Origin: a virus
Length of the DNA stretch: 64,000 nucleotides
Direction: 5' to 3' (one strand)
IMG/VR virus record: IMGVR_UViG_3300042827_000007
Location: 4,848 to 68,847 of that record
Shown in pieces: positions 27,924 to 42,848 of this stretch. Under the pieces are notes generated by a model, which was given only the letters and a program-made list of their open reading frames with translations, did not search any database and was not told the origin of the DNA. The number at the start of each line of letters is the position of its first letter. Within the stretch, counting starts at the first letter, position 1. A program made the position numbers and the translations under genes.

Positions 27924-28408
27924 TCTTCCTCCCGCGGGGGGTCGTCGTCGAGTCGGATCGGCTGACCGCCGATGGAGATCGAGCCGTCCGCCTCGGGGAA
28001 CCACAGCCCCTCCGCGACGGCGGTCTCCCGCGCTTGCTGGATGATCCGCCGGGTCCGGACGCGCCGGACGGCGTGCGCGCGGACCCGACGGCGGGCCTCC
28101 CACCGGAGGGCCTTCACCGGCAGGACGAGGCCGAGCGCGACGTACAGCGGGCCGGCCCCGCCGTGAAGCACCTCGAACCAGGCGAGGAACACGGCGGCGG
28201 CGAGGAAGCTCACCCGGAGCTTGAGCGTGAACGGCACGTAGCCGGCCGGGCGGCGACGAGAGGGCCGGCCGTAGTAGCCGGCGGCGACCCGCTCGTACGC
28301 CGATTCGACCTCGCGCTCCGAGATCGGGGAGTACCCCGGCCCGGTCTGGACGGTCACCCGGTACCAGGCGTCGCCCTCGTTCCGGTCGTCCCAGATGTCC
28401 CGGCTCAC
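27920..28408 (-). CDS. Membrane protein
   Basis: Two TM segments (VSFLAAAVFLAWF; LYVALGLVLPV); GTGA coupling. Confidence 0.65.
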   Translation of the reverse strand: MSRDIWDDRNEGDAWYRVTVQTGPGYSPISEREVESAYERVAAGYYGRPSRRRPAGYVPFTLKLRVSFLAAAVFLAWFEVLHGGAGPLYVALGLVLPVKALRWEARRRVRAHAVRRVRTRRIIQQARETAVAEGLWFPEADGSISIGGQPIRLDDDPPREEE

Positions 28409-28812
28409 CGTGCGGCCCTCCGGCGGAGCGCGAGCGTCGCCTGGCGGGCGGTCAGGTCGGCGCGGCCGATCGCGACCCGCTCGACCTCGATCCCGTCCGT
28501 GCGCTCGTAGTTGACGCGGAGGACGACCGTCGCGCCGGCCCGGCCGACGTTCGTCAGGTAGACCCGCTCGGCGACCATGGACTCCACGTCGTAGCCGAGG
28601 CGGGCCAGCTCCCGGACGAGTTCCTTCGTCCACCGGTCCGAGGACCGCCAGGTCGAGTCGATCTGCTCACGGGTCGTCGGGACACGCCGGACGACGCGCT
28701 CGCCGAGGTCCCGGCGGCCGGTCGGGGCGTGCGGGTTGTCCGTGCGGTCGGTCCCGCCGAGGCGGAGGACGTCGTGTGCGGCAAGCTCTCGAATGTCCCA
28801 CTCGCGGCTCAT
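28405..28812 (-). CDS. Hypothetical protein
   Basis: MSREWDIREL...; GGAGGG RBS downstream of a promoter-like motif. Confidence 0.7.
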   Translation of the reverse strand: MSREWDIRELAAHDVLRLGGTDRTDNPHAPTGRRDLGERVVRRVPTTREQIDSTWRSSDRWTKELVRELARLGYDVESMVAERVYLTNVGRAGATVVLRVNYERTDGIEVERVAIGRADLTARQATLALRRRAAR

Positions 28813-28830
28813 GGTCAGGTTCCCTCCAGC

Positions 28831-28877
28831 GTCGGCAGTCGTCGTTACCTCCACAGGATAACACCCCGTGCGTGATC
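28831..28877 (-). promoter_or_regulatory. Degenerate member of the repeated promoter family plus ACTGCCGAC leader
   Basis: Minus strand TCACGCACGGGGTG-TTATCCT-GTGGAGGTAACGACGACTGCCGAC; TGn extended -10. Confidence 0.55.
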
Positions 28878-29036
28878 CAGGGAAGCCCCCGCGGTCTCGT
28901 ACTTCCGGCGGAGCCGAGCCTTCGACGCCCGGCTGTTCTGGCGCTCCGGGTCGTACCACGGGCACGCCGGCCGGTGGCCGCGCTTGCGGGCCGTCCGGCG
29001 GCGGCACCCGCACTCCAGGCGGGACGCGGCCATCAC
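28845..29036 (-). CDS. Small basic Cys/His protein
   Basis: 63 aa, CGC..HRPAC; ATGA coupling; end overlaps the promoter motif. Confidence 0.5.
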   Translation of the reverse strand: MMAASRLECGCRRRTARKRGHRPACPWYDPERQNSRASKARLRRKYETAGASLDHARGVILWR

Positions 29037-29818
29037 TCGTCACCGTCATAACGGTGGTCGTGCGGCTCCGACGCCCAGCCCTGCTCCGGGACGACGTCGG
29101 ACTTGCCGGCGGCGGCCAGCCGGTCCAGGTGAGGGAACTCGGTACTCGGGACGGCCAGGGCGGACACCGCCAGGAACACCCCGCGGTCGTCGTCCCGGCG
29201 GTCGACCTTCGCCGCGACCGTGTACCGCTCCCCGACGAGGATCGGCGTCATCGTCGCCTCCAGTACGACCGGCGGGATCTCGATCTCGACGTTCCCGTAC
29301 GGCAGGCGGAACAGCCCGCGGGCGACCTCGCGGCCCTGGAAAGTCGGCTCCCGGCGAAGCGACCCGATGACCCCCGTCAGGACCACCTCCGCGCCGTCGG
29401 CCTCGTGCTCGATCTCCCGCGGCTCCCGGCGGTACAGCTCCGGGTGAGCCTCGAACCGGCGGGCGTGCTGGCGGGCCAGCTCCAGATCGGCGACGAACCC
29501 GTCCAGGTTCGTGATCGTGTACGCGCCGGCCTGGATGGCGTGGAGCACGAGACACCCGGCCTCGTCGACGGCGATGTCCAGCCCGCCGACGCGGGTCGTC
29601 GAGGCGTAGACGTCGAACTCCCGCGGGTGGACCGGCTGGCGCACGGCGCGCGTGTTCGCCGGGGCGGTCGTGCGGTGCCGGGCGCGGGCCTGGCCGCACA
29701 GTGCGGTCCCGAGGTTCGTCCCGTCGATCAGGTGCTCACACCGCGGGGCGTCCGGGTTCCGGGCCTCGAACGGGTGATCGAGATCGGGCATGGTCTTGCG
29801 CTGGTCGATGGTCATCAT
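29033..29818 (-). CDS. Protein with C-terminal OB fold resembling the DnaE (Pol III alpha) OB domain
   Basis: VVLTGVIGSLRREPTFQGREVA..GNVEIEIPP..YTVAAKVDRRDD. Confidence 0.6.
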   Translation of the reverse strand: MMTIDQRKTMPDLDHPFEARNPDAPRCEHLIDGTNLGTALCGQARARHRTTAPANTRAVRQPVHPREFDVYASTTRVGGLDIAVDEAGCLVLHAIQAGAYTITNLDGFVADLELARQHARRFEAHPELYRREPREIEHEADGAEVVLTGVIGSLRREPTFQGREVARGLFRLPYGNVEIEIPPVVLEATMTPILVGERYTVAAKVDRRDDDRGVFLAVSALAVPSTEFPHLDRLAAAGKSDVVPEQGWASEPHDHRYDGDE

Positions 29819-29928
29819 TTCCTCCTGGCGTAGTAGCACATCACGGCGAAGGCCGCGACGACGAAGAGAGAGCACACGATCAGGACGGGGTCGTTCTTCG
29901 GCCACGTGCTGACGACGATGCCGATCAC
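29815..29928 (-). CDS. Small single-pass membrane protein
   Basis: 37 aa, VLIVCSLFVVAAFAVMCYY followed by ARRK; coupled both sides. Confidence 0.55.
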   Translation of the reverse strand: MIGIVVSTWPKNDPVLIVCSLFVVAAFAVMCYYARRK

Positions 29929-30239
29929 TTCCGGGCCTCGCCGCACTGCGGGGATGCACCGGACCGGCAGATCTGCTCCGTGAGCTTGAGCTGTTCGGCA
30001 CCCTTGCGGAGCCAGTCGGCCCGGCGCTCGGCGTGCGAGGTGCGGGAGTCGGCGATGGGGCCGACGTTGCCGAAGTCCTTCGGGTGGCGGGGGTCGTACG
30101 ACTTCGCGTAGGTCCACCACGCGCGCCACACCCGGGCGTGCTCGCCGCAGAGGTCGGCCGGCGGCCGGCGGGTCTGGGGGAACTCGGGGACGGCCAGTAG
30201 GCCGGCGGCGCGGAGGGCTGGTACCTGTTCCTCGGGCAT
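29925..30239 (-). CDS. Hypothetical protein
   Basis: 104 aa; GGAG RBS. Confidence 0.7.
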   Translation of the reverse strand: MPEEQVPALRAAGLLAVPEFPQTRRPPADLCGEHARVWRAWWTYAKSYDPRHPKDFGNVGPIADSRTSHAERRADWLRKGAEQLKLTEQICRSGASPQCGEARK

Positions 30240-30251
30240 CGTTGCTCCAGG

Positions 30252-30297
30252 GTCGGCAGCGGTCGTTACGCGCTCAGAATAACAGCCGGGCCGTGAT
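30252..30297 (-). promoter_or_regulatory. Degenerate member of the repeated promoter family plus leader
   Basis: Minus strand TCACGGCCCGGCTG-TTATTCT-GAGCGCGTAACGACCGCTGCCGAC. Confidence 0.55.
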
Positions 30298-30301
30298 CAA
30301 G

Positions 30302-30535
30302 CTAGAGGTACTTCGGGTCGGCCCGGACCGTGACCGCCCACTCATGATCGGAGAACCACCCGAACGTCGGGACGTCGAACTCCCCCGGGCGATGCCAGGA
30401 CGGCCGGTCCAGCCGATGGACCGGGGCCACCGCGGGCCGGCCGGCCTCCAGGTCTTCGCGCCACTTCCGCCACCGCTCGATCTCCGCGTCCCAGTCGTCG
30501 AGGTACGCGCGGTCCGGGCCGTCCTCCATGGTCAT
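30302..30535 (-). CDS. Hypothetical protein
   Basis: MTMEDGPD..., GGGGAG RBS. Confidence 0.65.
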   Translation of the reverse strand: MTMEDGPDRAYLDDWDAEIERWRKWREDLEAGRPAVAPVHRLDRPSWHRPGEFDVPTFGWFSDHEWAVTVRADPKYL

Positions 30536-30561
30536 CTCCCCATCGGCAGTAGGGTCATCAC

Positions 30562-31659
30562 GTGAGCGTAAACCCCGACGACTGGAGCCTCCGCCGCTCC
30601 GCACCCGTCGATCTGTTCGACGACTACTCCGGCCGGCGGCGGCGGCCGGAAGGCATCCACGAGGCCGACGAGGGCGCGATCCAGGGCCACCGGCGACCCG
30701 TCGAGCTGGTCCCGACCGGGCCCCGACTGATCACCGCGACGGCGGTCGCGACGGCCGCCCTCGTCCTGCCCGGTGCGATCGTCCTCGACGGCGGCGGCCA
30801 CGGGCACCAGGCGGACGCCGCGCTCGGCGAGGCCCCGCAAGTCGCCCCGGGCCTGCCGGCCACACCGCCGCCCGGCCAGCCGTTGACCGAGCCCGTCCCG
30901 GCTGGCAGCGTGAAGCGCATCCCGGCGGGCCAGGCCGTCACCTACCCGGCGGGCGGGTCGGCCCCCGCTCCCGCCGTCACGGCCCCCGCGGACACGGAAG
31001 CGGGGCCGACCCAACCAGGGCCGACCCCGCCACGAACCGGTGAGGCTACGAGGCCCCCGACCGATCGTCCGTCTCATCCGGCCCCGGCTCAGCCTCCGCG
31101 GGCGACCCCGGATCGGCCGGCACATCCGGAGCACCCGGCGCACCCGGCGACTCCGCCGGACGCGTCCCCTCGGCCGCCGGAGGTTGTTCCCGACCAGGGC
31201 CCGCCGGGTCTGACCCGCTCGACGCCTCCAGGGCACGCGAAGCGCGCCACGCCAGGAACGGAGCCTCGACGCCGGCCGGCAGGACGACCGACCCCGGAGA
31301 CACCCGCGGGCCGTCCGGGTGCTGAGCGTTCCACGCCCTCGCCTCGTCGGGCAGGACCAGCAACTCCCCCGGCCGCCGCTCGGCACCACGCGGAGGAACC
31401 ACCGGCTGACCGGTCCGAGGGCCGGCGGCACGGTGAAGGGAGGACAGCCCCCGAGCGAGCGAATCGGCCAGCCCGCGGAGAAGATGCTCCGGGAAGATCG
31501 GAGTCGGCACCGTCACGCGCGGGACGCGGAGGTCACCGAGACCCGATGCGGCCCCTTGCGGAACCAGAGGCCGAGCACCGGCCAGGAGATCGAGCGGGTG
31601 AGTCCGCGTCGTCGATCCTTGACCGGCTCCAGCGCGAGCGAGACGCGCGGCGCGGATAA
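30562..31659 (+). CDS. Single-pass membrane protein with long Pro-rich tail, antisense to surrounding block
   Basis: TM LITATAVATAALVLPGAIVL; strong GC3 to ~31020; TAGGGT 6 nt before GTG suggests a leaderless mRNA. Confidence 0.55.
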   Translation: MSVNPDDWSLRRSAPVDLFDDYSGRRRRPEGIHEADEGAIQGHRRPVELVPTGPRLITATAVATAALVLPGAIVLDGGGHGHQADAALGEAPQVAPGLPATPPPGQPLTEPVPAGSVKRIPAGQAVTYPAGGSAPAPAVTAPADTEAGPTQPGPTPPRTGEATRPPTDRPSHPAPAQPPRATPDRPAHPEHPAHPATPPDASPRPPEVVPDQGPPGLTRSTPPGHAKRATPGTEPRRRPAGRPTPETPAGRPGAERSTPSPRRAGPATPPAAARHHAEEPPADRSEGRRHGEGRTAPERANRPARGEDAPGRSESAPSRAGRGGHRDPMRPLAEPEAEHRPGDRAGESASSILDRLQRERDARRG

Positions 31660-31810
31660 GCGTCAACCACTCCACACGCACCCGAGGCATGACGGCCGCC
31701 AGCGCTCCAGCGAGCGCGGCGGCCGTCGACGTGTCCCGGACCGTGACCTCCGTCGTCGGGCCGAGGTTCGAGAACGGCCCTTCTTCGATCCTGATCGTTA
31801 CGCGGGTCAT
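31046..31810 (-). CDS. Hypothetical protein overlapping the convergent + strand ORF
   Basis: GGAGG RBS, ATGA coupling with upstream gene, high GC3 in first ~40 codons. Confidence 0.55.
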   Translation of the reverse strand: MTRVTIRIEEGPFSNLGPTTEVTVRDTSTAAALAGALAAVMPRVRVEWLTLIRAARLARAGAGQGSTTRTHPLDLLAGARPLVPQGAASGLGDLRVPRVTVPTPIFPEHLLRGLADSLARGLSSLHRAAGPRTGQPVVPPRGAERRPGELLVLPDEARAWNAQHPDGPRVSPGSVVLPAGVEAPFLAWRASRALEASSGSDPAGPGREQPPAAEGTRPAESPGAPGAPDVPADPGSPAEAEPGPDETDDRSGAS

Positions 31811-32277
31811 CCCCGCCTCCCCTCACAGCGGAACCGGCGGGTCTCGCCGGACCCCTCGTCCAGGACGTACCGGTCGACGTGCGGGCCGTGCTCGCGGGCG
31901 ACCCCGTCCGCGTCGGCGTCGCCGCACCACGACGGGCCCCACTCCCGGACCGGGCCCCCGCGGTAGTCCCCGCGGCGGCGTCGGCGGCCGTCGGCGTCGC
32001 ACTGCCGGCGGTACGTGACCTGATCGACCCACCGGCCCCCGATCGAGACCGGGGGCGGCGGGTACTCGGCGTTCTCTTCGGCGACCCGGGCTCGGTAGCC
32101 GGCCTCGTAGCCGGACCGCCAGGACAGCTCCGAGGGCTCACCCTCGACGGCCTCCCGTGCCCACCGGGCGGCCTCCCCCATGAGGTACGCGACCTGTTCC
32201 CGGGTGAACAGGTGGTCGGGGTCGGCGAGGGCGGCCTGGAGCCGGTCGATCGGCGTTGCGTCGGCAGTGATCGTCAT
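31807..32277 (-). CDS. Hypothetical protein
   Basis: MTITADATPIDRL...; coupled overlaps. Confidence 0.7.
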   Translation of the reverse strand: MTITADATPIDRLQAALADPDHLFTREQVAYLMGEAARWAREAVEGEPSELSWRSGYEAGYRARVAEENAEYPPPPVSIGGRWVDQVTYRRQCDADGRRRRRGDYRGGPVREWGPSWCGDADADGVAREHGPHVDRYVLDEGSGETRRFRCEGRRG

Positions 32278-32666
32278 GCGCTGAACCATCCGTAGACGAA
32301 GGCGTACCCGAACAGGAGACCCAACACGCCGACGAAACGCAAGCCGAGGGGTGACTCCGTCATCCACCACTTGACCCCGTCGACGAGATACCGGAACACC
32401 CCGACGTGGATCGGGACCCGGGCCGGCAGGGGCGGCGGGAGCGGCAGGCACATCCGCCAGTTGTGCGCCAGCCACCGGATCTCGTCCGGGGACCAGGCCC
32501 ACCACTCCGGGTCGACTTGCATGGTCACTCCGACCCGGCAGCGCGCGACGGCCAGGGTCACTCCTTCCTCGTGCGCGCGGACAGCGTCGGCGTACGTCGG
32601 TGCGGTGCGCTCGGCGGCGCGGCACGCCGGGCAGTACGCCGGCCGGTCAACGTGGTCAGTCTCCAC
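32274..32666 (-). CDS. Protein with CxxC and C-terminal TM segment
   Basis: YCPACR; FVGVLGLLFGYAFVYGWF. Confidence 0.65.
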   Translation of the reverse strand: METDHVDRPAYCPACRAAERTAPTYADAVRAHEEGVTLAVARCRVGVTMQVDPEWWAWSPDEIRWLAHNWRMCLPLPPPLPARVPIHVGVFRYLVDGVKWWMTESPLGLRFVGVLGLLFGYAFVYGWFSA

Positions 32667-33063
32667 CGGAGATCACCCCCTTGTAACGGATCTGGTTCGC
32701 GATCGGGTTCTTCGTGCGGACCCGCTGTTTCTCGATCGCCTTCGCGATCTCCTTCGAGCGGTACCACGTGACCCGGGAGGGCCACATGTTCGCCTGGACG
32801 GCGGGGTCCGCGTCCCACCACCACCGGCGCGGGTGGCCGGGCGGGAGCTTGCTCTGGTACTGGACGTGCCGCTTCATCCGCTTAGCGACGTCGGAGCACT
32901 CGCCGATGTAGAGCAGCGACCCGTCCTCCGTGTCGATCTCGTAGACCCAGTGACCCTCTGACGTGAAGTTCAGGACCGCCCACCGGACCAGGAAGACGAG
33001 GGCGAGGACGACCACGGCGAAGACGAAGGCCCCGCCGAGGTCGCCCCACCGGAAGTCGTTCAT
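32656..33063 (-). CDS. GIY-YIG-family nuclease with N-terminal membrane anchor
   Basis: TM GGAFVFAVVVLALVFLVRWAVL then WVYEI..LLYIGEC..KRMKRH..E..NPIAN. Confidence 0.75.
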   Translation of the reverse strand: MNDFRWGDLGGAFVFAVVVLALVFLVRWAVLNFTSEGHWVYEIDTEDGSLLYIGECSDVAKRMKRHVQYQSKLPPGHPRRWWWDADPAVQANMWPSRVTWYRSKEIAKAIEKQRVRTKNPIANQIRYKGVISGGD

Positions 33064-33452
33064 GCCCACGGGCTCCAGAGGGAGAGCCAGCCCGTCGCCC
33101 CGAGCAGGACGACGGAGCCGGCCACCGCCCACCCGAGGCCGAACCCCGGGCGGGTCGAGGTCCCGCGGGCCCTCGCGGACATGCGGGCCTGGAGGCTGTT
33201 CCGCTGGCCGTTGACCGCCAGCCACCCGATCGTGATCGCGGCGGCCAGGACCAGCGCGCCGACGCCGAGCTTCACGTGATCGACGTACAGCCACAGGGCC
33301 ATGAGGCCGGCGACGGCGGCGGCCAGGATGACCAACTTCGACATGAGCGGACCCGCGATGATCCACCACGGGTGACGCCGCGCGATGGTGCGGTGCGCTT
33401 CGTGCTGCATGATCCGCCACTTCGTGTCGGAGTCCAGCCGTCGCCGTGCCAT
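33060..33452 (-). CDS. Three-TM membrane protein (Spd-like position)
   Basis: Three hydrophobic segments; co-oriented directly downstream of traB/traA-like genes. Confidence 0.7.
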   Translation of the reverse strand: MARRRLDSDTKWRIMQHEAHRTIARRHPWWIIAGPLMSKLVILAAAVAGLMALWLYVDHVKLGVGALVLAAAITIGWLAVNGQRNSLQARMSARARGTSTRPGFGLGWAVAGSVVLLGATGWLSLWSPWA

Positions 33453-33464
33453 GGTCCTACCTCC

Positions 33465-33842
33465 TTAGCCGTCGACTTCGAGGGTTCCCGAGTCCGTGGC
33501 GTTCTCCGCCTGGCGGATCGGTTCGATGTAGAGCACTTCGAGACGACGGATGAAGATCGTCATGTTCCGTGCGCAGTTGTAGAGATCCTGTGCGGCGGCG
33601 CGCAGGGGCTCGCAGATCTGCGTGGCGGCGTGGTTCGCGTCGCCGCCGTGGAGGAAGCGGGAGCGGTAGCCCCCGCCGTCGAGGCCCTTCGAGCGGAGCC
33701 CCTTGACGAGGCGGCCGTGAAGGGGGATCGCCATGTTCGCCAGGGCGTCCGAGCCCTGGATCGCGGCGGCGCGGAACGCCTCCGCGTAGCGCTTCCATTC
33801 GCTGGTTTTGGTCCCGGGCTGGCCGGGGGGCATCTGCGGCAT
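33465..33842 (-). CDS. TraA-like helical plasmid-transfer accessory protein
   Basis: 125 aa helical, adjacent to traB; AATQICEPLRAAAQDL..NMTIFIRRLE recalls actinomycete plasmid TraA; weak. Confidence 0.5.
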   Translation of the reverse strand: MPQMPPGQPGTKTSEWKRYAEAFRAAAIQGSDALANMAIPLHGRLVKGLRSKGLDGGGYRSRFLHGGDANHAATQICEPLRAAAQDLYNCARNMTIFIRRLEVLYIEPIRQAENATDSGTLEVDG

Positions 33843-33848
33843 GAGTGG

Positions 33849-36248
33849 TCAGCTCTCCTTCCGGGCCCCACCGCGCGGGCGGGGCGACGGGCCGGTCTTG
33901 TGGATCTGGAAGCGTCCGAATCCCAGACGCTCCAGGGTGTAGCCGTGGGGCAGGATGCGCGTACCTTCGCACACCGCGGACAGCCGGCGGGACATGGTGG
34001 GGTCGGACCAGGCGTACTCCATTTCGTCGTGGACGTCCTGGTTCGTGATCGTCGTCTTCCCCTTCGCGTACAGCCGGACGATCGCGGCGTCGAACGCGGC
34101 CTCGGCCTGTTCATTGTTCGGGGCGACGGGCTTCGTCTCGGGGAGGTCCGTGTCGAACCCGCCGACGTCGATCCCGACCCGCGGGTCCACCGCTTCCTCG
34201 TCGAGGCCGGGGTGAGCCATGGTCGACACCTCCCCGATCCCGCCCTCGCCGTCCGGCAGGGTCGAGCCCTCCGGGGTCTTCGTGACTGCTTCCACTTCGC
34301 GTCCTTCCTCGGTCTCGAACCCGGCTCCGGGCTGGTTCCGGATCACCCGCCGGATCTGCTGTGTCTGCTCCATGTCGCCCTCGGCGTTCGCGTCGTCGGG
34401 CTCGTACACACCGGTCTCCGGCGTCTCCGGCTGGCTCTCCGGCCGGGCCTTACGGGCTCCCTTCTTCTTCGGCTGGTCGGCTTCGGCCGCGCGCTCCGCG
34501 TCGGCCTGGTCGGCGGCTTCCTCCGCGGCGGCCATGACCGCCTCGGGGTCCGGGCCGTCCTCGTGCTTCGGCGCGGACCGCCGGAGCCCGATCAGAACGT
34601 CCGGGGTGATCTGGTCGTACAGGTCTCCCATCGCGGCGACGGCACCCGCGGAGAGAGTCATCGGCGTGAACGTCGACCGGGCCTGGAGGACCCGGTTCCG
34701 CAGGGCCCGCCGTTCCGACTTGAACGTCCGGCAGAGGATCGGCCAGCGCTCCTGGGGGATGCCCGGGGCGGAGTCGAGGTAGTGGAGGCCGGGGAGCCGC
34801 AGGGCGGACGGGTCCGCTCCCGCTTCCTCCGCGATCTTCGACAGGGAAAAGTCCCCGCTGTACTTGTCGCCGATCGCGAACGTCTTCCAGGTCGCCAGCG
34901 ACGAACGGAGCTTCGCCGTGATCTCACCCGTCGAGGCCCGCGGGAGGGACGGCTCCAGGAAGATCCCGAGGGACCGTCCGCGGGCACCCAACCACTCCCA
35001 CTCCTTCGTCATGATGTACTCGTCCGCCTCGTCGGCGATGACGAGGATCGCGGCCTCCCCGGTCTGCTGAGCCAGCTCCGGGGTCCACTCCCGGCCGACC
35101 TCCATGTCCTCGTCCTCGTTCAGCATTGCGTCGAGCGACACCTGGCCGAACAGCTCCACCCGGTACTCGGCGATGCGGCGCAACGCGAGCGCAACCTTCC
35201 GCGGAGTTGCGCCGTTCGGCCTTTCGCTGGGCCGGTCACATGCGCCGAACGCGAGCATGTCGGCGCACCACCCGACGTTCTGGCGAAACTTCGAGATGTC
35301 CAGCCACACGAGCAGCGCATCGCAACGCGTCAGCGTCTCCGCCGCGACGTTGTTCAGTTCGCCGCTCTTGCCGGAGCCGGTCGTCCCCTGGAGGCCGACG
35401 AACGTAGCTTGCGGCGCACGGAACGACGTCAGCGGCGACGTAACTTGCGCCTTGACGAACCCGAACCATTGATCTTCGCCGTCCTCGTAGTACGCCGTAC
35501 GGAACGGGTAGGCGAAGGACATCCCCGGGTGCGACGGGCCGGGCCAGGTGCGCCACTCCGAGACGAACGGGTCGGCCATGAGCATCCGGATCTGGGAGCT
35601 TCCGCCCCGGTGGTCCGGCTGAGTCACGGTGGTCCGGCCGACGACCGCGCCGGCCGCGTCGGCGAGTTTCTTCGCCCCGTTCTGGACGTTCTCGACGGTC
35701 TCGCCCGGCCCGTGCTCGACGTCGATCACGACGTGGGTCGGGGTCGTGGTGACCTTCTTCGGCCGGGACTTCGCGAGGCCGATCACGTCCGCCCAACCGT
35801 CGGAGGACTCGCCCTTAGCGGCGGCCCGGAAGACGTCGATCCGGTAGAGCATCCAGGACCCCCACACGATCGCGGTCGTGAACACGGCCGTGACGTTCAG
35901 GAACCGGTGGTGCCATCCGAGGAACGTGAACAGGTTCCCGCCGAGGCCGACCAGGAACAGGGTCGCCGCGACGTGCTTGATCACGAAACTGATCCGCTTC
36001 GCGCGGAACAGGCCGACGCCGATCGCGATGACGGAGATCAGGCACCCGGAGATCAGCCAGGCGTCCGCGATCAGGACCCCGGTCGCCGGGTCCCACAGCA
36101 TGATCCCGCGGGAGGCCGCGAACAGGGCCGGCAGGACGAGGAACGCGACCATGAGCGACGCCAGGAACGGGGTCGCGCGCTTCTTCGTGGGGCGGACGTG
36201 GACGGACACGCCCTCGTGGTCTTCGCGCCGCTCAGCCTTCGTGCTCAT
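33849..36248 (-). CDS. traB: TraB-like FtsK/SpoIIIE-family conjugal DNA translocase
   Basis: Four N-terminal TMs; WPGPSHPG..YYEDG; Walker A GTTGSGKS; Walker B IADEA; GRSLGIFL..PRAS; C-terminal wHTH-like segment. Confidence 0.85.
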   Translation of the reverse strand: MSTKAERREDHEGVSVHVRPTKKRATPFLASLMVAFLVLPALFAASRGIMLWDPATGVLIADAWLISGCLISVIAIGVGLFRAKRISFVIKHVAATLFLVGLGGNLFTFLGWHHRFLNVTAVFTTAIVWGSWMLYRIDVFRAAAKGESSDGWADVIGLAKSRPKKVTTTPTHVVIDVEHGPGETVENVQNGAKKLADAAGAVVGRTTVTQPDHRGGSSQIRMLMADPFVSEWRTWPGPSHPGMSFAYPFRTAYYEDGEDQWFGFVKAQVTSPLTSFRAPQATFVGLQGTTGSGKSGELNNVAAETLTRCDALLVWLDISKFRQNVGWCADMLAFGACDRPSERPNGATPRKVALALRRIAEYRVELFGQVSLDAMLNEDEDMEVGREWTPELAQQTGEAAILVIADEADEYIMTKEWEWLGARGRSLGIFLEPSLPRASTGEITAKLRSSLATWKTFAIGDKYSGDFSLSKIAEEAGADPSALRLPGLHYLDSAPGIPQERWPILCRTFKSERRALRNRVLQARSTFTPMTLSAGAVAAMGDLYDQITPDVLIGLRRSAPKHEDGPDPEAVMAAAEEAADQADAERAAEADQPKKKGARKARPESQPETPETGVYEPDDANAEGDMEQTQQIRRVIRNQPGAGFETEEGREVEAVTKTPEGSTLPDGEGGIGEVSTMAHPGLDEEAVDPRVGIDVGGFDTDLPETKPVAPNNEQAEAAFDAAIVRLYAKGKTTITNQDVHDEMEYAWSDPTMSRRLSAVCEGTRILPHGYTLERLGFGRFQIHKTGPSPRPRGGARKES

Positions 36249-36270
36249 GGCCGCCTCCCTTCACTGTCCG

Positions 36271-36358
36271 TAGATGATCTGTGAAATTGCACCGTTGGAT
36301 CTTGCAATCTTGCAACCTGGACGAACTGCGTTTTTCAGGCGTGAAATTTCAGTGATCA
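36271..36358. promoter_or_regulatory. AT-rich intergenic segment with short repeats upstream of traB (candidate tra promoter/operator or clt)
   Basis: GTGAAATT at 36281 and 36341; tandem ATCTTGCA at 36299 and 36307; palindrome TGAAATTTCA. Confidence 0.45.
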
Positions 36359-37474
36359 TGCTTCGGATCTCTTAGGCACCGGGGCGTCTGTAGCCACCGG
36401 GCCACCCTGCAAGATTTCACCGTCATCCGCGGGCGTCGGCGTCGCAGCGCGTGACGTCACCGCGCGTGCCTCGCGCTCCTTCGAGACCCACAACTGAGCC
36501 GTGCGGGGCTTCACGCCGAGGGCCTGGCCGACGGTCTTCGCGTCCTCCGGCGGGTCAGCGTCAAGGCACCGCTTGATCACGTCGCCCCACCGCGGGTCGC
36601 GCGGGCCGGCCTGGCGGCCACCTCGTGCGGGCGCGGCCGGGGCGGGCCGGCGGGCCGCCCGCCGGGCGGCGCGGGCCGCGCGGGCGGCCTCCCTCTGCTC
36701 CGCGCCGACCTGAGCGGCGAGCACCGGGCCGAGGGCTTCGGCGGCCTCGATCTGCTCCGGGGTGAGCACCGACGGGCCAGCCGGCCAGGGCTCGGCGGCC
36801 GGCTCCGGGGCGGCCTCGACCGCGGGCGGCGGGGCCAGCTCAGCGACGGCGACCGGCAGCGGCAGGGACGGCACCTCGACCGGCTGGCGGGACGCGATGG
36901 CGTGGGCCGTCGCGAAGGCCAGGGACGGCCGGGCGGCGGGGGCGGCCAGGGCGTCGGCCAGGGCGTCGGCGACCAACCGCGGGGCCCGCCAGGCACGCCA
37001 CCGGGCCACGAGGCCGGGCCGGCGGGCGGCCACCTCGACGGGCTCGACGGCGGCCAGGCTGTGCTCCCGGCGGCGGGCGACGATGATCAGGGCGTGGAGG
37101 CTGGCGGCCAGGAAGACCGCGGGGAAGATCGAGGCGACCCGGCCCCACACGCTCCAGCGCTCATGGTCGGCGAAGCCCTCCGACGCGCCGACCTGAGCGG
37201 CGATGGCGACGCCGAGCCAGAACCAGGCGTACGCCCGGGTGCGCCAGTGTGCGTTACGCAGGTGGTACGTGAGGACCATCATCGTTACGGCGAAGACGTC
37301 CAGCGCAACCGGCGCACCCCACGGGAGCGGGTGGCGCAACTTCCACACCTTGTCGGCGAAGCCGTACGCCATCCACGCCTGGATGGCGAACTGCGTCAGC
37401 GCATTTGCGCCGATCAGCAACGCAACCGGGACGGGGATGCGCCGCAGCGAAGTAGAGCGAGTGTCGGCAGACAT
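36356..37474 (-). CDS. DUF2637-like (SpdA-like) four-TM protein with Pro/Ala linker and C-terminal HTH
   Basis: APVALDVFAV..AYAW..PAVFLAASLHAL; EDAKTVGQALGVKPRTAQLWV; TGC-TACGGT 7 nt before ATG (leaderless). Confidence 0.75.
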   Translation of the reverse strand: MSADTRSTSLRRIPVPVALLIGANALTQFAIQAWMAYGFADKVWKLRHPLPWGAPVALDVFAVTMMVLTYHLRNAHWRTRAYAWFWLGVAIAAQVGASEGFADHERWSVWGRVASIFPAVFLAASLHALIIVARRREHSLAAVEPVEVAARRPGLVARWRAWRAPRLVADALADALAAPAARPSLAFATAHAIASRQPVEVPSLPLPVAVAELAPPPAVEAAPEPAAEPWPAGPSVLTPEQIEAAEALGPVLAAQVGAEQREAARAARAARRAARRPAPAAPARGGRQAGPRDPRWGDVIKRCLDADPPEDAKTVGQALGVKPRTAQLWVSKEREARAVTSRAATPTPADDGEILQGGPVATDAPVPKRSEA

Positions 37475-37597
37475 GCGACGCACCGTAGCACGGATTGCGC
37501 CGCCGTGGTTACGCCGGGGGGATGACATGCGCCGATGCGTTTTGCACCGGGCGTGCGCCGGCCCCCGTGCGCTGGTTGCGCCGGGGGCCGGGGTGCG

Positions 37598-37870
37598 TCA
37601 GTCCATGTCGCCGGGCTTCGCGTACCACATGCTCTCCCAGATCTCCCGGGGAGTGCTCCCGTCGCGGAGGTCGTAGCCGACCCACACGCGGCAGTTGTTG
37701 TACGTCCAGTTCGCCGGGTCCTTCGCGAAGGCCAGGGCGTCGGCCTCGGTCCGGAAGCGCCGGCCCTCGACGCTGGCCGGGTGGATCGCGTTCCGGAAGC
37801 GGACCACGAACGGCCGACGCTGGGCCGAGGTGAGGCGGGCGGCGGGGGCGGGGGTGATGGTCTCGATCAT
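37598..37870 (-). CDS. Hypothetical protein driven by repeat promoter copy A
   Basis: 90 aa; GAGG RBS downstream of promoter at 37922-37965. Confidence 0.7.
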   Translation of the reverse strand: MIETITPAPAARLTSAQRRPFVVRFRNAIHPASVEGRRFRTEADALAFAKDPANWTYNNCRVWVGYDLRDGSTPREIWESMWYAKPGDMD

Positions 37871-37921
37871 GTCTGCCTCGATCTCTCTGGAGTTTTCAGG
37901 TCGTGCCTTGCTTGTACCCAT

Positions 37922-37965
37922 AGCCTAACCCCCGGGGCGTGACTGGCGCAACCCCCCGGGCGTGA
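37922..37965 (-). promoter_or_regulatory. Repeated promoter/operator, copy A
   Basis: TCACGCCCGGGGGG-TTGCGC-18 nt-TAGGCT on minus strand. Confidence 0.85.
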
Positions 37966-38015
37966 AAATCTTGGCTGGCCGCTCGGCCGCAGCTCAAGGC
38001 CCGGATGTGCCACCC

Positions 38016-38059
38016 TAACGCCCGGGGGGTTGACAGCCTCACCCCCGGGGCGTTAGGCT
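38016..38059 (+). promoter_or_regulatory. Repeated promoter/operator, copy B
   Basis: TAACGCCCGGGGGG-TTGACA-18 nt-TAGGCT. Confidence 0.85.
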
Positions 38060-38150
38060 GATGGCACAACACCACACAGGGAGCCGGAGCCGCAGCCCGG
38101 AGCAGGACCACCGCCCGCCGCGCCCCTCCCCCGAGAACCTGGAGCACACG

Positions 38151-38774
38151 ATGACCGAGACCACCGCCCCCGCGATCACCACCGCCGAGCGCAACTACCG
38201 CACCGTCAAGGCCATCTCGACCGGCTACACCGTCGCCACCCTCGGGGTCTCCGCCTTCCACCTCGTGGAGCTGTCGATCCACTTCGGCGGGGGCTGGCAG
38301 TCCTTCCTTGCGCCGGCCCTGGTCGACGGGTTCGTGATCCTCGGCAAGCTCGGCGACCGGCCCGGCATCGTCAAGTCCGCCCGCACCGCCTCCCGCGCCG
38401 TCTCGATCATCGCCGGGTCAGTCTCCCTGGCCGCGAACATCGCGATCGGGATCATCGACCACGCCCCCGCGGTCTCCCTGATCGGCGCGCTCGCCGTGAT
38501 CGGGTTCTGGGTCGCCGAGTTCCTGTCCCACAAGCTCCGCCCGACCACGAAGCGGCCGGCCGCCCCGAAGCCCGCCCCGAAGCCCGCCCCGGCCGCCGCC
38601 GCCCCGGCCGCCCCGGTCAAGTCCGCGAAGGACCCGAAGCGCGTCGAGGCCGCCCGCAAGGCCGCCGCCACCCGGGCCGCCCGCAAGGCCGCCCCGGTCG
38701 CCCCGGTCGCCCCGGTCAGCCACCCGGACGCCGCCGCCCTGGTCGACCACCGCACCCCCGCCGCCTACATCTGA
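38151..38774 (+). CDS. Second DUF2637-like membrane protein with Ala/Pro/Lys tail
   Basis: SAFHLVELS..GWQSFLAPALVDGF..VSLAANIA; four TMs; GGAG RBS. Confidence 0.7.
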   Translation: MTETTAPAITTAERNYRTVKAISTGYTVATLGVSAFHLVELSIHFGGGWQSFLAPALVDGFVILGKLGDRPGIVKSARTASRAVSIIAGSVSLAANIAIGIIDHAPAVSLIGALAVIGFWVAEFLSHKLRPTTKRPAAPKPAPKPAPAAAAPAAPVKSAKDPKRVEAARKAAATRAARKAAPVAPVAPVSHPDAAALVDHRTPAAYI

Positions 38775-38780
38775 CCGGCC

Positions 38781-38802
38781 GGCCCGCCCTCCGGGGCGGG
38801 CC
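38781..38802 (+). terminator. Cassette-closing hairpin
   Basis: GGCCCGCCC-TCCG-GGGCGGGCC just after stop. Confidence 0.65.
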
Positions 38803-38828
38803 CTCCCCCGGAAGAATCTTGACCCGGA

Positions 38829-38871
38829 TCACGCCCGGGGGGTTGCGCTCTCACCCCCCGGGCGTTAGGCT
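38829..38871 (+). promoter_or_regulatory. Repeated promoter/operator, copy C
   Basis: TCACGCCCGGGGGG-TTGCGC-17 nt-TAGGCT. Confidence 0.85.
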
Positions 38872-38904
38872 AGTGGTATCACCCCAACCGACCGGGAGGT
38901 CACC

Positions 38905-39270
38905 ATGAACGCCACCACCACCGCCCCGATCACCTTCTCCGCCGCCATCCCGGCGGTCTCCTTCCAGACGGTGGCCGGCGGCCGGGCGGTCCGGGTGCGG
39001 CGCGAGGGCAAGGGCGACACCTTCCTCCTGGTCCGCGACGACCGGGCGCGCTCGTACGACGTCTACCTCCTGGTCATGCAGGGTCAGGGCGTCGTCGGCC
39101 GGGTGGCGTGCGTCGACGGTGAGTGGATCTGGGAGCACGGCGTGTTCCGCAACTGGGAGGCCACCGGCACCCCGTTCCAGGTCTTCCCCTCGTCCACGGT
39201 CGAGACCCGGTGGGGCTTCGCGAACCGCGAGGACGCCGTGGCCGAGGCCGCCCTCTACTGGCTCTCCTGA
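38905..39270 (+). CDS. Hypothetical early protein
   Basis: 121 aa beta-rich; GGAGG RBS; sole gene of cassette C. Confidence 0.75.
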   Translation: MNATTTAPITFSAAIPAVSFQTVAGGRAVRVRREGKGDTFLLVRDDRARSYDVYLLVMQGQGVVGRVACVDGEWIWEHGVFRNWEATGTPFQVFPSSTVETRWGFANREDAVAEAALYWLS

Positions 39271-39275
39271 GCCGA

Positions 39276-39318
39276 TCACGCCCGGGGGGTTGACGCCTCA
39301 CCCCCCGGGCGTTACGCT
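39276..39318 (+). promoter_or_regulatory. Repeated promoter/operator, copy D
   Basis: TCACGCCCGGGGGG-TTGACG-17 nt-TACGCT. Confidence 0.85.
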
Positions 39319-39357
39319 TGACCCATACCGCACCGCTACTGCCGACAGGAGCCAGCC

Positions 39358-40374
39358 ATGAACCAGCTCGACGACGAGACCCGGGGAGACGCCCTCGGGG
39401 TCCGCGACCTCGGCCGCCGGTCCGTCGCCTTCGACCGCTTCCGCAAGCTGGCCGAGCGCAACGGCTACGAAGGTCGCCCCGGCGGATGGATCTACGACAC
39501 CCGCCGCCCCGGCGCGCCGGCCATCACGCAAGGCTGGCAGAAGTTCGCCCTCTACGTGCTGAACCAGGCCGTCCGCTTCCAGACCGCCGCCGAGTTCGAC
39601 GCCGCCGAGGCCGCCCTCCCGACCCCCGCCGCGCCGGCCCCCGCCGCCGCGCCGGTCGCCTGCCTTCACGCCGGATGCCACCCGGGCCGCTGCGTCTACG
39701 GCCGGCCGGTCACCCCGTCCGACCACGCGAACGACGTCGCCGCCACCCTGGCCGCCGCGCTCGGGGGCCGGTACGCCGTCCGGGTCGACGCCCGCGGACC
39801 GAACGGGTTCGCCGTGGTCGAGGACCACGAGACCCGGGACAACGCGGCCGTGTTCACCGGCCCGGACGCCGCGGAGCAGGCCGAGGACACGGCCGCCCGG
39901 CTCCGCGCCGGGGAGGACTACGTCGCCCGCCTGGTCGGCGGGACGACCGGCTCCGGCAAGACCACCGCCCCGGAGCCGACGCCCGGCGAGGTCGCGGAGG
40001 ACGTCCTCCGCGTCCTGGTCGACGACCTGGCCGCCACCGGGTGCGACACGGCCGCCCTGAACGTCACGCAGGCCGCGCGCCGGCTGTTCGGCCTCGACCT
40101 GGAGCGCGAGCGGCACCGCGGGACGGCCCGGTTCCACCACGACCGCCAGGTCCGGGAGAACACCCGACGCCCGGCCGGCCTGCCGGCTGGCGTCGCCGAC
40201 TACCGCCAGCCGTTGACCCCCGGCGAGCGCGCCGCGGGCGTGCTGGCCGTCGAGGACGGGCCCCGACCGACCCCGCTGTGCCTGCGGGCCGACGGGGAGC
40301 ACTGCCTCCACATGGCCGCCGTGACCCCGGCGTGCCGCGACCTGACCGACGACGACGCCGAGGCCGACATCTGA
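39358..40374 (+). CDS. Mosaic hypothetical early protein containing an isolated P-loop-like GTTGSGKT
   Basis: 338 aa; AGGAG RBS. Confidence 0.7.
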   Translation: MNQLDDETRGDALGVRDLGRRSVAFDRFRKLAERNGYEGRPGGWIYDTRRPGAPAITQGWQKFALYVLNQAVRFQTAAEFDAAEAALPTPAAPAPAAAPVACLHAGCHPGRCVYGRPVTPSDHANDVAATLAAALGGRYAVRVDARGPNGFAVVEDHETRDNAAVFTGPDAAEQAEDTAARLRAGEDYVARLVGGTTGSGKTTAPEPTPGEVAEDVLRVLVDDLAATGCDTAALNVTQAARRLFGLDLERERHRGTARFHHDRQVRENTRRPAGLPAGVADYRQPLTPGERAAGVLAVEDGPRPTPLCLRADGEHCLHMAAVTPACRDLTDDDAEADI

Positions 40375-40431
40375 CCGCCCTCCCGGGGGCCGGCCGCCGC
40401 CGGTCCCCGCCGCCCCTCCCTGGAGGAAGCC

Positions 40432-40668
40432 ATGAGCAAGATCCTTGTCGTCAGCGACGACGAGACCGCCCGCGTCGAGGTGATGACCCTCGCCGACCCG
40501 ACCGCCCCCGACGACCAGGACGAGCACCCGACGTTCCTCGCTCAGTGCCGGACCCCGGGGTGCGCGTGGAACAGCTTCGTCGACGAGAACACCGTCCACC
40601 TGTTCGAGGCGGACGCGATCAACGATGCGGAGATGCACCTCGACGAACACGAACACGCGGAAGCCTGA
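40432..40668 (+). CDS. Small acidic protein with Cys/His ligands
   Basis: 78 aa; CRTPGC..HLDEH; GGAGG RBS. Confidence 0.7.
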   Translation: MSKILVVSDDETARVEVMTLADPTAPDDQDEHPTFLAQCRTPGCAWNSFVDENTVHLFEADAINDAEMHLDEHEHAEA

Positions 40669-40674
40669 GAAGGA

Positions 40675-40718
40675 TCACGCCCCGGGGGTTGACGGACTCA
40701 CCCCCCGGGCGTTAGACT
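40675..40718 (+). promoter_or_regulatory. Repeated promoter/operator, copy E
   Basis: TCACGCCCCGGGGG-TTGACG-18 nt-TAGACT. Confidence 0.85.
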
Positions 40719-40724
40719 CGTGGT

Positions 40725-41021
40725 ATGACGACGACGCGGACCCGGATCACCTTCACCGCCTGCCCCGAGTGCCAGATCCCGACCGGGGTCCGCGGGCTCG
40801 CCCGGCACCGCGAAGCCGCTCACAACGTCGCCCCGGCGGTCAAGGGCCGCAAGGTCCGCCCGCTGGACCGGGCCGAGCGCGCCGTCCTGACCGAGGCCGC
40901 CGCCGGAGAGATCTCCGCCGCCCGGCTGGCCTACCGGACCACGATCACCAAACTGACCCGGGCCGGCTACCTCGCCGCTGACCTGACCATCACCGACGCG
41001 GGCCGCGCCCGTCTCTCCTGA
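40725..41021 (+). CDS. C2H2-type zinc finger + winged-helix-like small protein (leaderless)
   Basis: CPEC..LARHREAAH; TITKLTRAGYL..ITDAGRA; ATG 6 nt after -10. Confidence 0.7.
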   Translation: MTTTRTRITFTACPECQIPTGVRGLARHREAAHNVAPAVKGRKVRPLDRAERAVLTEAAAGEISAARLAYRTTITKLTRAGYLAADLTITDAGRARLS

Positions 41022-41075
41022 TCCACCCGCCGGGCGGGCCGGGAGGTCCGCCCCTCACCCCGGGAGTCTGCCGAC

Positions 41076-41312
41076 ATGTCCCGCCGCCGCTCCACCCGCT
41101 CGACCCACCGCGCCGGCTCCGCCGCCGCCTCCTTCCTGTTCGTCCTCGCCGTGGTCCTGGCGTGCGGCTCCCTCGCCGCCTGGACGCCCGCGCCGGACGG
41201 CCTGATCGGCTTCCTGGCCGTGGCCCTGGTCCTCGTGGGCGGGCTCGCCAGCGGCGGCCACTCCCGCGGGCACAGCCGGAGCCGGTCGCGCTCCCGCCGC
41301 CGCTACCGCTGA
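41076..41312 (+). CDS. Two-TM membrane protein with basic termini
   Basis: 78 aa; FLFVLAVVLACG; LIGFLAVALVLVGG. Confidence 0.65.
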   Translation: MSRRRSTRSTHRAGSAAASFLFVLAVVLACGSLAAWTPAPDGLIGFLAVALVLVGGLASGGHSRGHSRSRSRSRRRYR

Positions 41313-41327
41313 AACAATCTTGAGGAA

Positions 41328-41370
41328 TCACGCCCCGGGGGTTGCATCCTCACGCCCCGGGCGTTAGGCT
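41328..41370 (+). promoter_or_regulatory. Repeated promoter/operator, copy F
   Basis: TCACGCCCCGGGGG-TTGCAT-17 nt-TAGGCT. Confidence 0.85.
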
Positions 41371-41405
41371 ATGAGTATCAGCAAGACAGGGAACGAGATC
41401 CGGGA

Positions 41406-41939
41406 GTGATTCAGATGACGAAGGCCACCACCGCCCCCCGCAAGAGCCGCTACACCGACGAAGAGCGCGAGGCGTTCAAGGCTCAGCGCGCCGCCTACGT
41501 GGCCGCCCTCGACACCTTCGAGATCGAGCCGGAGACGGCGACCGAGATCGCGTTCGAGCGGCTGACCGAGCGCTACAGCGAGCGGAACTCCATGCTGATC
41601 CTGATCCAGTGCCCGGCCAGCTTCGGCGACGTCAAGGCCATGAGCAAGTGGAACGAGGACGGCCGGAAGATCAAGAAGGGCGCGAAGTCGATCTACATCC
41701 TGGCCCCGGCCGGCGACAAGCGGGCGGACGTCGAGATCGCCGACAAGCCCGCCGCCGACGCGAAGCCCGGCGAGGCCCCCTCGAAGAAGCGGTTCATCTG
41801 GGTCCGGGTCTTCGACCGCAGCCAGACCGAGCCCCTTCCGAGCGACTGGAAGCCCCGCACCCCGCGGGCCCCGCGCGCCGCGAAGGCCGCCCCGGTCGCC
41901 GCCACCCGGACCGCCGCCCTGGACGACTTCCTCTCCTGA
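41406..41939 (+). CDS. ArdC N-terminal-like ssDNA-binding (antirestriction-family) protein
   Basis: YSERNSMLILIQCP..KWNEDGRKIKKGAKSIYILAP..VFDRSQTE. Confidence 0.78.
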   Translation: MIQMTKATTAPRKSRYTDEEREAFKAQRAAYVAALDTFEIEPETATEIAFERLTERYSERNSMLILIQCPASFGDVKAMSKWNEDGRKIKKGAKSIYILAPAGDKRADVEIADKPAADAKPGEAPSKKRFIWVRVFDRSQTEPLPSDWKPRTPRAPRAAKAAPVAATRTAALDDFLS

Positions 41940-41945
41940 CCACCC

Positions 41946-41973
41946 GGGCCCGGCCCCCGCGGGGGCCGGGCCC
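41946..41973 (+). terminator. Hairpin after ArdC-like gene
   Basis: GGGCCCGGCCCCC-GC-GGGGGCCGGGCCC. Confidence 0.6.
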
Positions 41974-41995
41974 CTCTGTCCCGAAGGGGGACGGC

Positions 41996-42415
41996 ATGAC
42001 GAAGATCCAAGACATCGCGAACGCCCCGAAGATCCTCCAGCGCCAGGCGGAGCACGCCCTCACGGCCGCGTACGCCTCCAGCGCTCGACTGACGAAGATC
42101 CGCGAAGCCCTCGGCGTCACCGGGAAGACGTACCTCGGGGAGGTCGTCACCCTGGACGGCTCCGCCCTGGACGACGACGACCCGGAGAGCTACCGGGCCG
42201 GGGTCTACGCGGTCGAGACGCACGGGAGCGGGTTCGGGACCGCCTGGACCACCCTCGTCCGCGGGCACACCGACCACATGCATTTCACCGGCCAGGCCGC
42301 CCGCTGGTCCGCGATCTTGCACGCTATCGCCCTGGTCCACGGCGACGGCGACTCGCACGCGACCGGCGCGTTCTACGCCGGCCGGGTCCTCGGCCTCCCG
42401 CAGGACCAGCCGTGA
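41996..42415 (+). CDS. Hypothetical protein
   Basis: MTKIQDIANAP...; AAGGGGG RBS. Confidence 0.7.
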   Translation: MTKIQDIANAPKILQRQAEHALTAAYASSARLTKIREALGVTGKTYLGEVVTLDGSALDDDDPESYRAGVYAVETHGSGFGTAWTTLVRGHTDHMHFTGQAARWSAILHAIALVHGDGDSHATGAFYAGRVLGLPQDQP

Positions 42416-42771: not shown

Positions 42772-42776
42772 ACGAA

Positions 42777-42819
42777 TCACGCCCGGGGGGTTGCGCTCTC
42801 ACCCCCCGGGCGTTAGACT
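42777..42819 (+). promoter_or_regulatory. Repeated promoter/operator, copy G
   Basis: TCACGCCCGGGGGG-TTGCGC-17 nt-TAGACT. Confidence 0.85.
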
Positions 42820-42848
42820 GTGGGTACAACACCAGAGAGGAACCCGAG

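Follow-up and report, generated by a model that had tools for sequence, protein, structure and literature searches.

TraB-driven conjugation of double-stranded DNA (dsDNA) is known, to our knowledge, only for actinomycete plasmids, actinomycete integrative and conjugative elements (AICEs), and a few plasmid-phages. The TraB proteins of these plasmids and AICEs (pSVH1, Tra/KilA of pIJ101, and TraSA of pSAM2) combine a transmembrane (TM) anchor with an FtsK-type motor, the sequence WPGPSHPG, a linker, and a C-terminal winged helix. On plasmids, traB is followed by small, translationally coupled membrane-protein genes and stands beside an array of short repeats; the Spd and DUF2637/SpdB_N proteins of this neighborhood are small, diverse membrane proteins encoded by genes whose stop and start codons overlap. 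TraB by itself transfers the dsDNA of plasmids, and the spread of this DNA through cross-walls is the work of Spd proteins (PMC4447253). Here, we describe a locus with the same general plan in a phage genome. The DNA analyzed was a stretch of 64,000 nucleotides (the window, to which coordinates refer unless stated otherwise), corresponding to bases 4848 to 68847 of IMG/VR record IMGVR_UViG_3300042827_000007; the whole record, of 76,412 bp, is called G000 below. It holds a leftward operon with a traB-like gene at 33849-36248 (minus strand). We consider it roughly 40% probable that this early operon is a phage-native conjugation-type apparatus by which the dsDNA of the phage passes between hyphal compartments or between cells with no virion involved, and that its carrier is a non-integrating phage of a soil actinomycete. 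In this reading, that DNA is transferred at all, which DNA it is, which way it moves, and that the host is mycelial are inferences.

The product of the traB-like gene (799 aa) was matched by the NCBIfam model plasmid_TraB (NF041214) over residues 106 to 612 (E = 2.1e-46, 158.7 bits). This was the sole meaningful family match, and no NCBIfam model of FtsK, EccC, or EssC matched at E ≤ 1. The Pfam model FtsK_SpoIIIE found nothing in the protein search or in the six-frame search, a failure that is uninformative because database entries for canonical TraBs are likewise without any Pfam domain. A tblastn search of PLSDB returned solely Streptomyces-type TraB genes, at 25 to 29% identity, and a sequence search against the PDB gave no match. 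The motifs quoted in the original prediction (four TM segments, WPGPS, YYEDG, GTTGSGKS, and a winged helix-turn-helix) are all present, as is VIADEAD; Walker A occupies residues 288 to 295 and Walker B residues 402 to 409, and a PRAS motif contains the invariant Arg437. An AlphaFold model built from 35 orthologues (predicted local distance difference test score [pLDDT], 75) has four TM helices between residues 26 and 145, a small alpha/beta domain (160-230), an FtsK-type motor (240-555), a disordered linker, and a winged helix (712-784). When this model was compared with the PDB using Foldseek, FtsK motor domains came top (6T8B and 2IUS; E = 4e-13), followed by TcpA, EssC/EccC, and HerA; among Swiss-Prot models the top match was TraSA of pSAM2 (E = 1.8e-16), and Tra of pIJ101 aligned from the TM region onward. 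By family match, fold, motifs, and the trees described below, the protein is a genuine but divergent TraB-family translocase, as originally proposed, and its motor would presumably form a hexameric ring like those of FtsK and TraB.

The likeness to FtsK and SpoIIIE goes beyond the motor fold, since the arrangement of anchor, linker, and winged helix also follows the logic by which FtsK gamma reads FtsK-orienting polar sequences (KOPS). However, the phage protein differs from FtsK/SpoIIIE in matching no FtsK model of Pfam or NCBIfam, in having another N-terminal domain and a TraB-specific signature, and in being encoded behind an early phage promoter. Its family match, fold, and WPGPSHPG signature thus group it with plasmid TraB rather than with FtsK or the ATPases of type VII secretion systems (T7SS), although as a sister clade.

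The gene that follows traB (33465-33842, minus strand) bears on a different explanation of the locus. Its product, of 125 aa, with an MPQMPP N terminus and a GLDG turn, is encoded directly after TraB in every phage-clade locus, and its model is a confident two-helix hairpin (pLDDT 84) with a weak, nonsignificant fold resemblance to the hairpins of WXG100/EsxB, PE, and EspC (PDB E ≥ 1.1). These best matches, with EssC and EccC among the fold matches of the motor, would suit a minimal T7SS-like export unit in which an FtsK/EccC-type membrane ATPase secretes the adjacent WXG100-like protein. We regard this as very improbable: the hairpin carries no WXG or YxxxD/E signal, the motor, with a single P-loop domain and a winged helix of the DNA type, lacks the three ATPase domains of EccC, the family search returned TraB at 2e-46 and nothing of the EccC/EssC families at E ≤ 1, and FtsK, TraSA, and Tra outranked EssC and EccC in the fold searches. 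The hairpin protein had been labeled TraA-like in the original prediction, a label we drop: BLASTP against pCQ4 TraA gave E = 1, and no NCBIfam model matched. Nor did it show homology to the open reading frames that follow traB in plasmids. This lack agrees with a published remark that spd genes differ too much between plasmids to be matched with one another (PMC4447253).

Next, we looked into how the phage protein relates to plasmid TraBs. In an alignment, it shares with proteins P0051 to P0055 and with pCQ4 TraB the WPGPSHPG signature ahead of Walker A, as well as Walker A and Walker B. It is only 25 to 29% identical to plasmid TraBs, however, and the QR(P/A)S of the latter is PRAS or SRAV in the phage clade, with the Arg invariant. 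The Walker A Lys, the Walker B Asp-Glu, and Arg437 are invariant across 35 orthologues at 33 to 80% identity, and the "SRRL" recognition helix of the winged helix is nearly invariant across the clade. The reading of PR for QR in the original prediction was right about the motif, and the doubt attached to it is resolved: because the substitution is clade-wide and the Arg is invariant, the motif is not damage but a trait of the clade under selection.

A word-indexed search recovered about 50 orthologues (33 to 80% identity), all metagenomic and many of them on contigs of 60 to 80 kb; an exhaustive profile search gave 575 representatives, whose scores fall continuously. We built trees with FastTree (164 sequences) and IQ-TREE (47 sequences), both unrooted and without an FtsK outgroup. 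A branch with support of 100 in both the Shimodaira-Hasegawa-like (SH-like) test and the SH-like approximate likelihood ratio test (SH-aLRT) separated the phage-verified proteins from every named plasmid TraB, that of pCQ4 included. Of the best 164 representatives at 50% identity, about 64 belong to the phage clade, all of them metagenomic. Phage context was verified for G000, L001 to L005, L013, L014, L015, L017, and L019, a set that spans five complete IMG/VR genomes (three of the five with terminal repeats), two NCBI metagenome contigs, and deep branches; the deep-branch loci (26 to 33% identity) also hold a holin, an amidase or GH25 lysin, tail genes, and a globin. In all of the verified loci (about 12), the operon separates the late module from the early one and is transcribed convergently with the late genes, and the order is a membrane/HTH (helix-turn-helix) protein, then traB, then the 125-aa protein. 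This position is shared by relatives at 26 to 80% TraB identity. Among 50,697 phage records, neither megablast nor tblastn found a match; relaxing the threshold to E ≤ 1 and querying with a distant member did not change this. Locus scans with single proteins likewise gave no match; the alignment-based scan of viral contigs gave loci, and that of genomes gave none.

These results indicate that the TraB operon is an old, phage-native, early operon kept across the lineage. They also bear on the idea that the module is passive cargo, i.e., a piece of a plasmid or AICE picked up recently, or else a gene in decay, that does nothing for the phage. The silence of the Pfam FtsK_SpoIIIE model and the replaced sensor Gln could be read that way, but canonical TraBs also go without Pfam matches, the catalytic residues are invariant, the G+C content at third codon positions (GC3) of the module is 0.92, like that of the rest of the genome, and we found no integrase or att borders. 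Because the clade is phage-only, with deep branches, and position and synteny are conserved among relatives, a fresh insertion of an AICE or plasmid fragment, including the integrase-bounded AICE considered in the original prediction, can be ruled out, and the passive-cargo explanation as a whole is close to refuted.

G000 is a complete siphophage with a G+C content of about 70%, as the original prediction had held from the window. Its CheckV completeness is 100%, and, although IMG/VR labels its topology linear, its first 176 bp recur at the very end (bases 1-176 and 76237-76412; 98.9% identity, two mismatches), so that the assembly is terminally redundant or circularly closed, at about 76.2 kb; the repeat with its mismatches is probably a strain-variant overlap. 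A GC3-based gene call resolved three blocks. The rightward virion block (850-24726) encodes, by PHROGs matches, a peptidase, TerL, portal, protease, major head protein, adaptor, major tail protein, tape measure, and others. A leftward block follows at 24833-37921, and a rightward early/replication block starts at 38061, with an ArdC-like anti-restriction protein, a Topo VI-A-like protein, an exonuclease and Erf, RuvC, WhiB, DUF5131, and a primase/helicase-type ATPase. The iteron-type origin reported earlier is real: its GGGTGTAC octamer repeats adjoin the primase/helicase gene, an arrangement that is ordinary for phages.

We then asked whether G000 lives as a phage-plasmid, as the original prediction had suggested. 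For the concept of a phage-borne transfer module, experimental precedent exists in plasmid-phages (PMC4170104, PMC4487206). Like G000, pZL12, pFP4, and pCQ4 carry traB and a full siphophage virion module on one replicon, and they are of similar size (85 to 90 kb versus 76 kb for G000), with high G+C content and WhiB-type genes. On this explanation, G000 would be a true phage-plasmid of the same kind, a repressed autonomous episome that conjugates via TraB and sometimes makes virions. The traA-traB pair beside terminase, portal, and capsid genes in pCQ4, the octamer-repeat origin and the ArdC-like gene of G000, and its eight early promoters, each with the pair of palindromic boxes that global repression by a single repressor would call for, are all in keeping with it. 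Small Streptomyces plasmids, moreover, also do without par genes.

The gene content of the phage lineage nevertheless leaves such a lifestyle unsupported, and we consider it rather unlikely. Six-frame family searches of G000 found no tyrosine or serine integrase, no ParB, and no ParA (AAA_31, CbiA); the absence of an integrase noted earlier for the window thus extends to the whole 76 kb, and the check for parAB on the full contig came out negative. Integrase and ParA/ParB were equally absent from five complete relatives, and no toxin-antitoxin system was recognized in any of the six complete genomes. A GntR-type TraR, as in kil-kor control, was missing from the six-frame search of G000, whereas pCQ4 and the plasmid-side contig L020 have GntR, and we identified no repressor. 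In contrast to G000, pCQ4 encodes ParB, a ParA-type AAA ATPase, a tyrosine recombinase, a Phd antitoxin, GntR, and a canonical traA-traB pair, and an isolate was found to carry it as a plasmid. It has just TraB (27% identity) and a peptidase in common with G000, and the two TraBs lie on opposite sides of the tree. Finally, members of the phage clade are all metagenomic, being absent from PLSDB, nr/UniRef, cultured phages, isolates, and 185,579 species genomes (pattern scan), so that no resident copy was seen; G000-type DNA occurs solely in soil metagenomes and soil metatranscriptomes. Separately, L020 (a JGI contig of 63.9 kb whose TraB falls with those of plasmids in the tree) carries GntR/UTRA, excisionase-type HTH_17, HNH, and DUF4326 genes like those of pCQ4 and may be another plasmid-phage of that type.

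The control region of the operon sets it apart from plasmid tra genes as well, since in place of a GntR TraR kil-kor system it is run by a phage early promoter/operator, and the replicon is a virus. A 14-nt box, AACCCCCGGGGCGT, has 21 matches in the window versus 2.3 expected, all within 37.9 to 43.9 kb, and these boxes are paired around the −35 element of eight promoter-like cassettes (37922-43870). One cassette (37922-37965, minus strand), in which two boxes flank the −35 element and TAGGCT is the −10 element, faces leftward into the operon; its mirror copy (38016-38060, plus strand; TTGACA, an 18-nt spacer, and TAGGCT) starts the rightward early genes. Because its promoter cassette is a copy of the early promoter/operator, the transfer operon is wired like an early gene. 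A candidate regulator of the boxes is the C-terminal HTH of the protein encoded at 36356-37420. In three RNA libraries, near-identical contigs span traB, the two genes upstream of it, and the early genes, and RNA-library depth was several-fold higher over 36.7 to 42 kb than over 24 to 33 kb, whereas a DNA run was flat; these depths are suggestive of early expression, though no more than that.

We delimited the operon as a minus-strand, co-oriented run from 37921/37870 to 31807, in which genes are separated by gaps of 6 to 12 nt or overlap by 10 to 16 nt, except at two spacers. It reaches past the left border of 32274 drawn in the original prediction, whose run of membrane, TraB-like, small TM, and TM-GIY-YIG proteins is otherwise present and tightly coupled. 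The first gene (37598-37870) encodes a soluble product of 90 aa, or 107 aa from an upstream ATG at 37921, with no match in Pfam, PHROGs, or NCBIfam. Next comes the 354-aa membrane protein (36356-37420), with an N-terminal multi-TM region, a Pro/Ala-rich linker, and an HTH-like C-terminal end, directly upstream of traB, as in the Spd/DUF2637 sets of actinomycete plasmids. Its earlier label, DUF2637-like, holds in part. The multi-TM and HTH architecture and the position agree with it, and the nearest clusters in a language-model atlas are DUF2637+HTH_23 and SpdB_N+HTH (scores of 0.87 to 0.91, to be read as a lead only), but Pfam DUF2637 (PF10935) does not match at E ≤ 10. In L015 the gene at the same position is a Pfam DUF2637 gene, and in L019 a DUF2637 gene belongs to the operon too but lies further upstream; the 354-aa protein aligns weakly with both products.

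Downstream of traB and the gene for the hairpin protein, the operon continues with four minus-strand genes. The first encodes a 130-aa membrane protein (33060-33452) with two or three TM segments in a TM scan, kept in L002 and L003 and Spd-like by position alone. It is followed by a 137-aa membrane-anchored GIY-YIG protein (32656-33069), with its TM segment at residues 15 to 33 and a Pfam GIY-YIG match at E = 3.9e-6; this protein, which had been recognized in the original prediction, is kept in L002, L003, and L014 and is without an equivalent in the pSVH1 set. The product of 32274-32666, of 130 aa and with a TM segment at its C terminus, has a weak homologue in L002, and a soluble 160-aa protein (31807-32289), kept in L002 and L003, is the last clearly coupled product, its gene overlapping the upstream one by 16 nt. 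The overlapping stop and start codons and the small membrane proteins beside traB are as on the plasmids; however, the likeness to Spd/DUF2637 proteins is one of position, architecture, and language-model score, and the accessory proteins are not recognizably homologous to those of plasmids. Outside the operon, though within the coordinates of the original prediction, the first rightward early gene (38061-38774, plus strand) encodes a second and better-preserved DUF2637-like membrane protein, which scores 0.90 against a viral DUF2637 atlas cluster, has structural TM scores of 0.54/0.59, and keeps the P-x-L-V-D-G hallmark.

A candidate cis site lies in the AT-rich spacer of 107 bp directly upstream of traB (36249-36355, minus strand). 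It holds two tandem copies of TTGCAAGA together with TGAAATTTCA and TGCAATTTCA, and a further copy occurs at 36408-36420. In the 260 bp upstream of traB, TGCAA/TTGCA was observed 6 times versus 0.09 expected (P = 9e-10). The motif is piled upstream of traB in all six members at ≥41% TraB identity (P values from 8e-4 to 3e-31), with 15 copies in L001, 10 in L002, 3 in L003, and 6 each in L013 and L014; the L001 array is mostly in one orientation, with the consensus YTGCAAGY (P = 3e-31). Judged from the repeats, the TGCAA(G) array could be the clade's cis-acting transfer locus (clt) or TraB recognition sequence (TRS) array, a tra operator, or an internal promoter. The multi-copy 11-mers found in relatives were limited to an intergenic cluster in L002 and a tRNA array in L015; the latter contig carries about 20 tRNA-like T-arm motifs (GGATTCGAACC and variants) at 2100-5700, which probably form a large cluster of tRNA genes upstream of its traB operon.

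If the operon does act as a conjugation-type apparatus, it might work as follows. The membrane-anchored TraB motor would dock through its C-terminal winged helix on a cis site, for which the TGCAA(G) array is the best candidate. The DUF2637-type membrane/HTH protein, the hairpin protein, and the three or four small membrane proteins, including the GIY-YIG nuclease, would take the role of the plasmid Spd proteins. Switched on with the early genes, the apparatus would drive the replicating dsDNA of the phage through septal cross-walls, or through contacts between hyphae, into neighboring compartments or cells, so that one adsorption event could take over more of the mycelium than the compartment first hit, with no virions and no stable plasmid state. 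A little less probably, this would be a virulent or nonlysogenic lineage of tailed phages whose own conjugation-derived TraB/Spd-like machine serves as a "movement apparatus," guided by a TGCAA(G) array that the winged helix reads, and carries infection through a multicellular bacterium with no extracellular step.

A TraB-like pump might also act on DNA without exporting the phage genome, in superinfection exclusion, in the handling of host DNA, or in prespore loading in the manner of FtsK/SpoIIIE. Early expression would suit such a role, as would the membrane anchor combined with a predicted DNA-binding-type winged helix; a membrane-tethered GIY-YIG nuclease would be well placed to destroy incoming or host DNA at the membrane, and DUF2637 membrane proteins are common in actinophages without TraB (viral cluster). 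We nevertheless think this quite unlikely. PADLOC found no known defense or exclusion family among the module proteins, one marginal GIY-YIG match aside, the closest sequence homologues are all conjugative TraBs, and a conserved repeat array stands beside traB on the phage's own DNA, as would be expected if the pump acts in cis on that genome.

Several observations weigh against phage spread by the TraB operon. The NF041214 score of 158.7 bits is far below the equivalog cutoff of 800, which makes the protein a homologue and not an equivalog, and the phage clade is sister to plasmid TraB instead of nested in the plasmid/AICE clade; because of both, the activity of the phage TraB may have diverged. 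At the sensor position, the Gln of FtsK and TraB is Pro or Ser in the phage clade, and no homology of the accessory proteins to known Spd or TraA proteins was detected. The TGCAA array was not found upstream of traB in distant phage members, and plasmids likewise lack it; it could be a promoter or operator instead of a clt. Unbiased 8-mer scans (over-representation, local clusters, and motifs common to relatives) revealed no TRS-like cluster and returned solely coding low-complexity repeats and generic GC-rich words. The RNA evidence consists of assembled contigs without strand, for which DNA carry-over is possible. Moreover, the absence from isolates could reflect uncultured hosts, and the host need not be mycelial.

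Other features of the genome were recorded alongside. The papain-like peptidase at 850-1767 is a lysis candidate, though not the sole one, because a 587-aa protein beyond the window (L009:4057-5820, i.e., contig positions 72056-73819) is matched by an endolysin PHROG (E = 2e-30) and an endolysin-like domain is present in the tape measure (15630-19088). The leftward block includes a stand-alone 138-aa protein (25045-25461, minus strand) with an RNA polymerase alpha C-terminal domain (Pfam E = 2.4e-7). It also includes a 1.27-kb stretch of 75% G+C (30536-31806) without a clean coding frame: a plus-strand frame from 30562 fits the GC-by-position pattern to about 30900 and would give a TM segment and a Pro-rich tail, and a minus-strand open reading frame at 31046-31810 is also possible. 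Among the early proteins, one of 177 aa (41406-41939, plus strand) has the ArdC-like anti-restriction match (PHROG E = 7e-7), of a kind typical of conjugative plasmids and of phages. Another, of 321 aa (46161-47126, plus strand), is Topo VI-A/Spo11-like and matches a "DNA topoisomerase" PHROG (E = 4e-96), with no B subunit seen. A globin-like gene at 57767-58504 has no Pfam match and has homologues in L001 and L004; a Pfam Bac_globin gene is present in the distant TraB-bearing phage L017 (13262-13645), and globins may recur in this phage group.

Our searches of the literature on DUF2637, on TraB in phage-plasmids, and on phage spread across cross-walls found nothing directly relevant. The TraB clade described here is deep and phage-only, with one fixed genomic position and an early promoter, in phages without visible integration or plasmid maintenance. 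Its natural TraB variants, with the PRAS sensor motif, a conserved recognition helix, and a candidate TGCAAG site, are useful for dissecting how a poorly understood motor recognizes DNA. If TraB does move phage DNA, the operon would let phages spread within multicellular bacteria independently of virions and would be a movement apparatus functionally analogous to the movement proteins of plant viruses. It would then bear on how phages cope with the compartmentalization of hyphae, on the relation between plaques and "pocks," and on the evolutionary traffic between conjugation systems and viruses.

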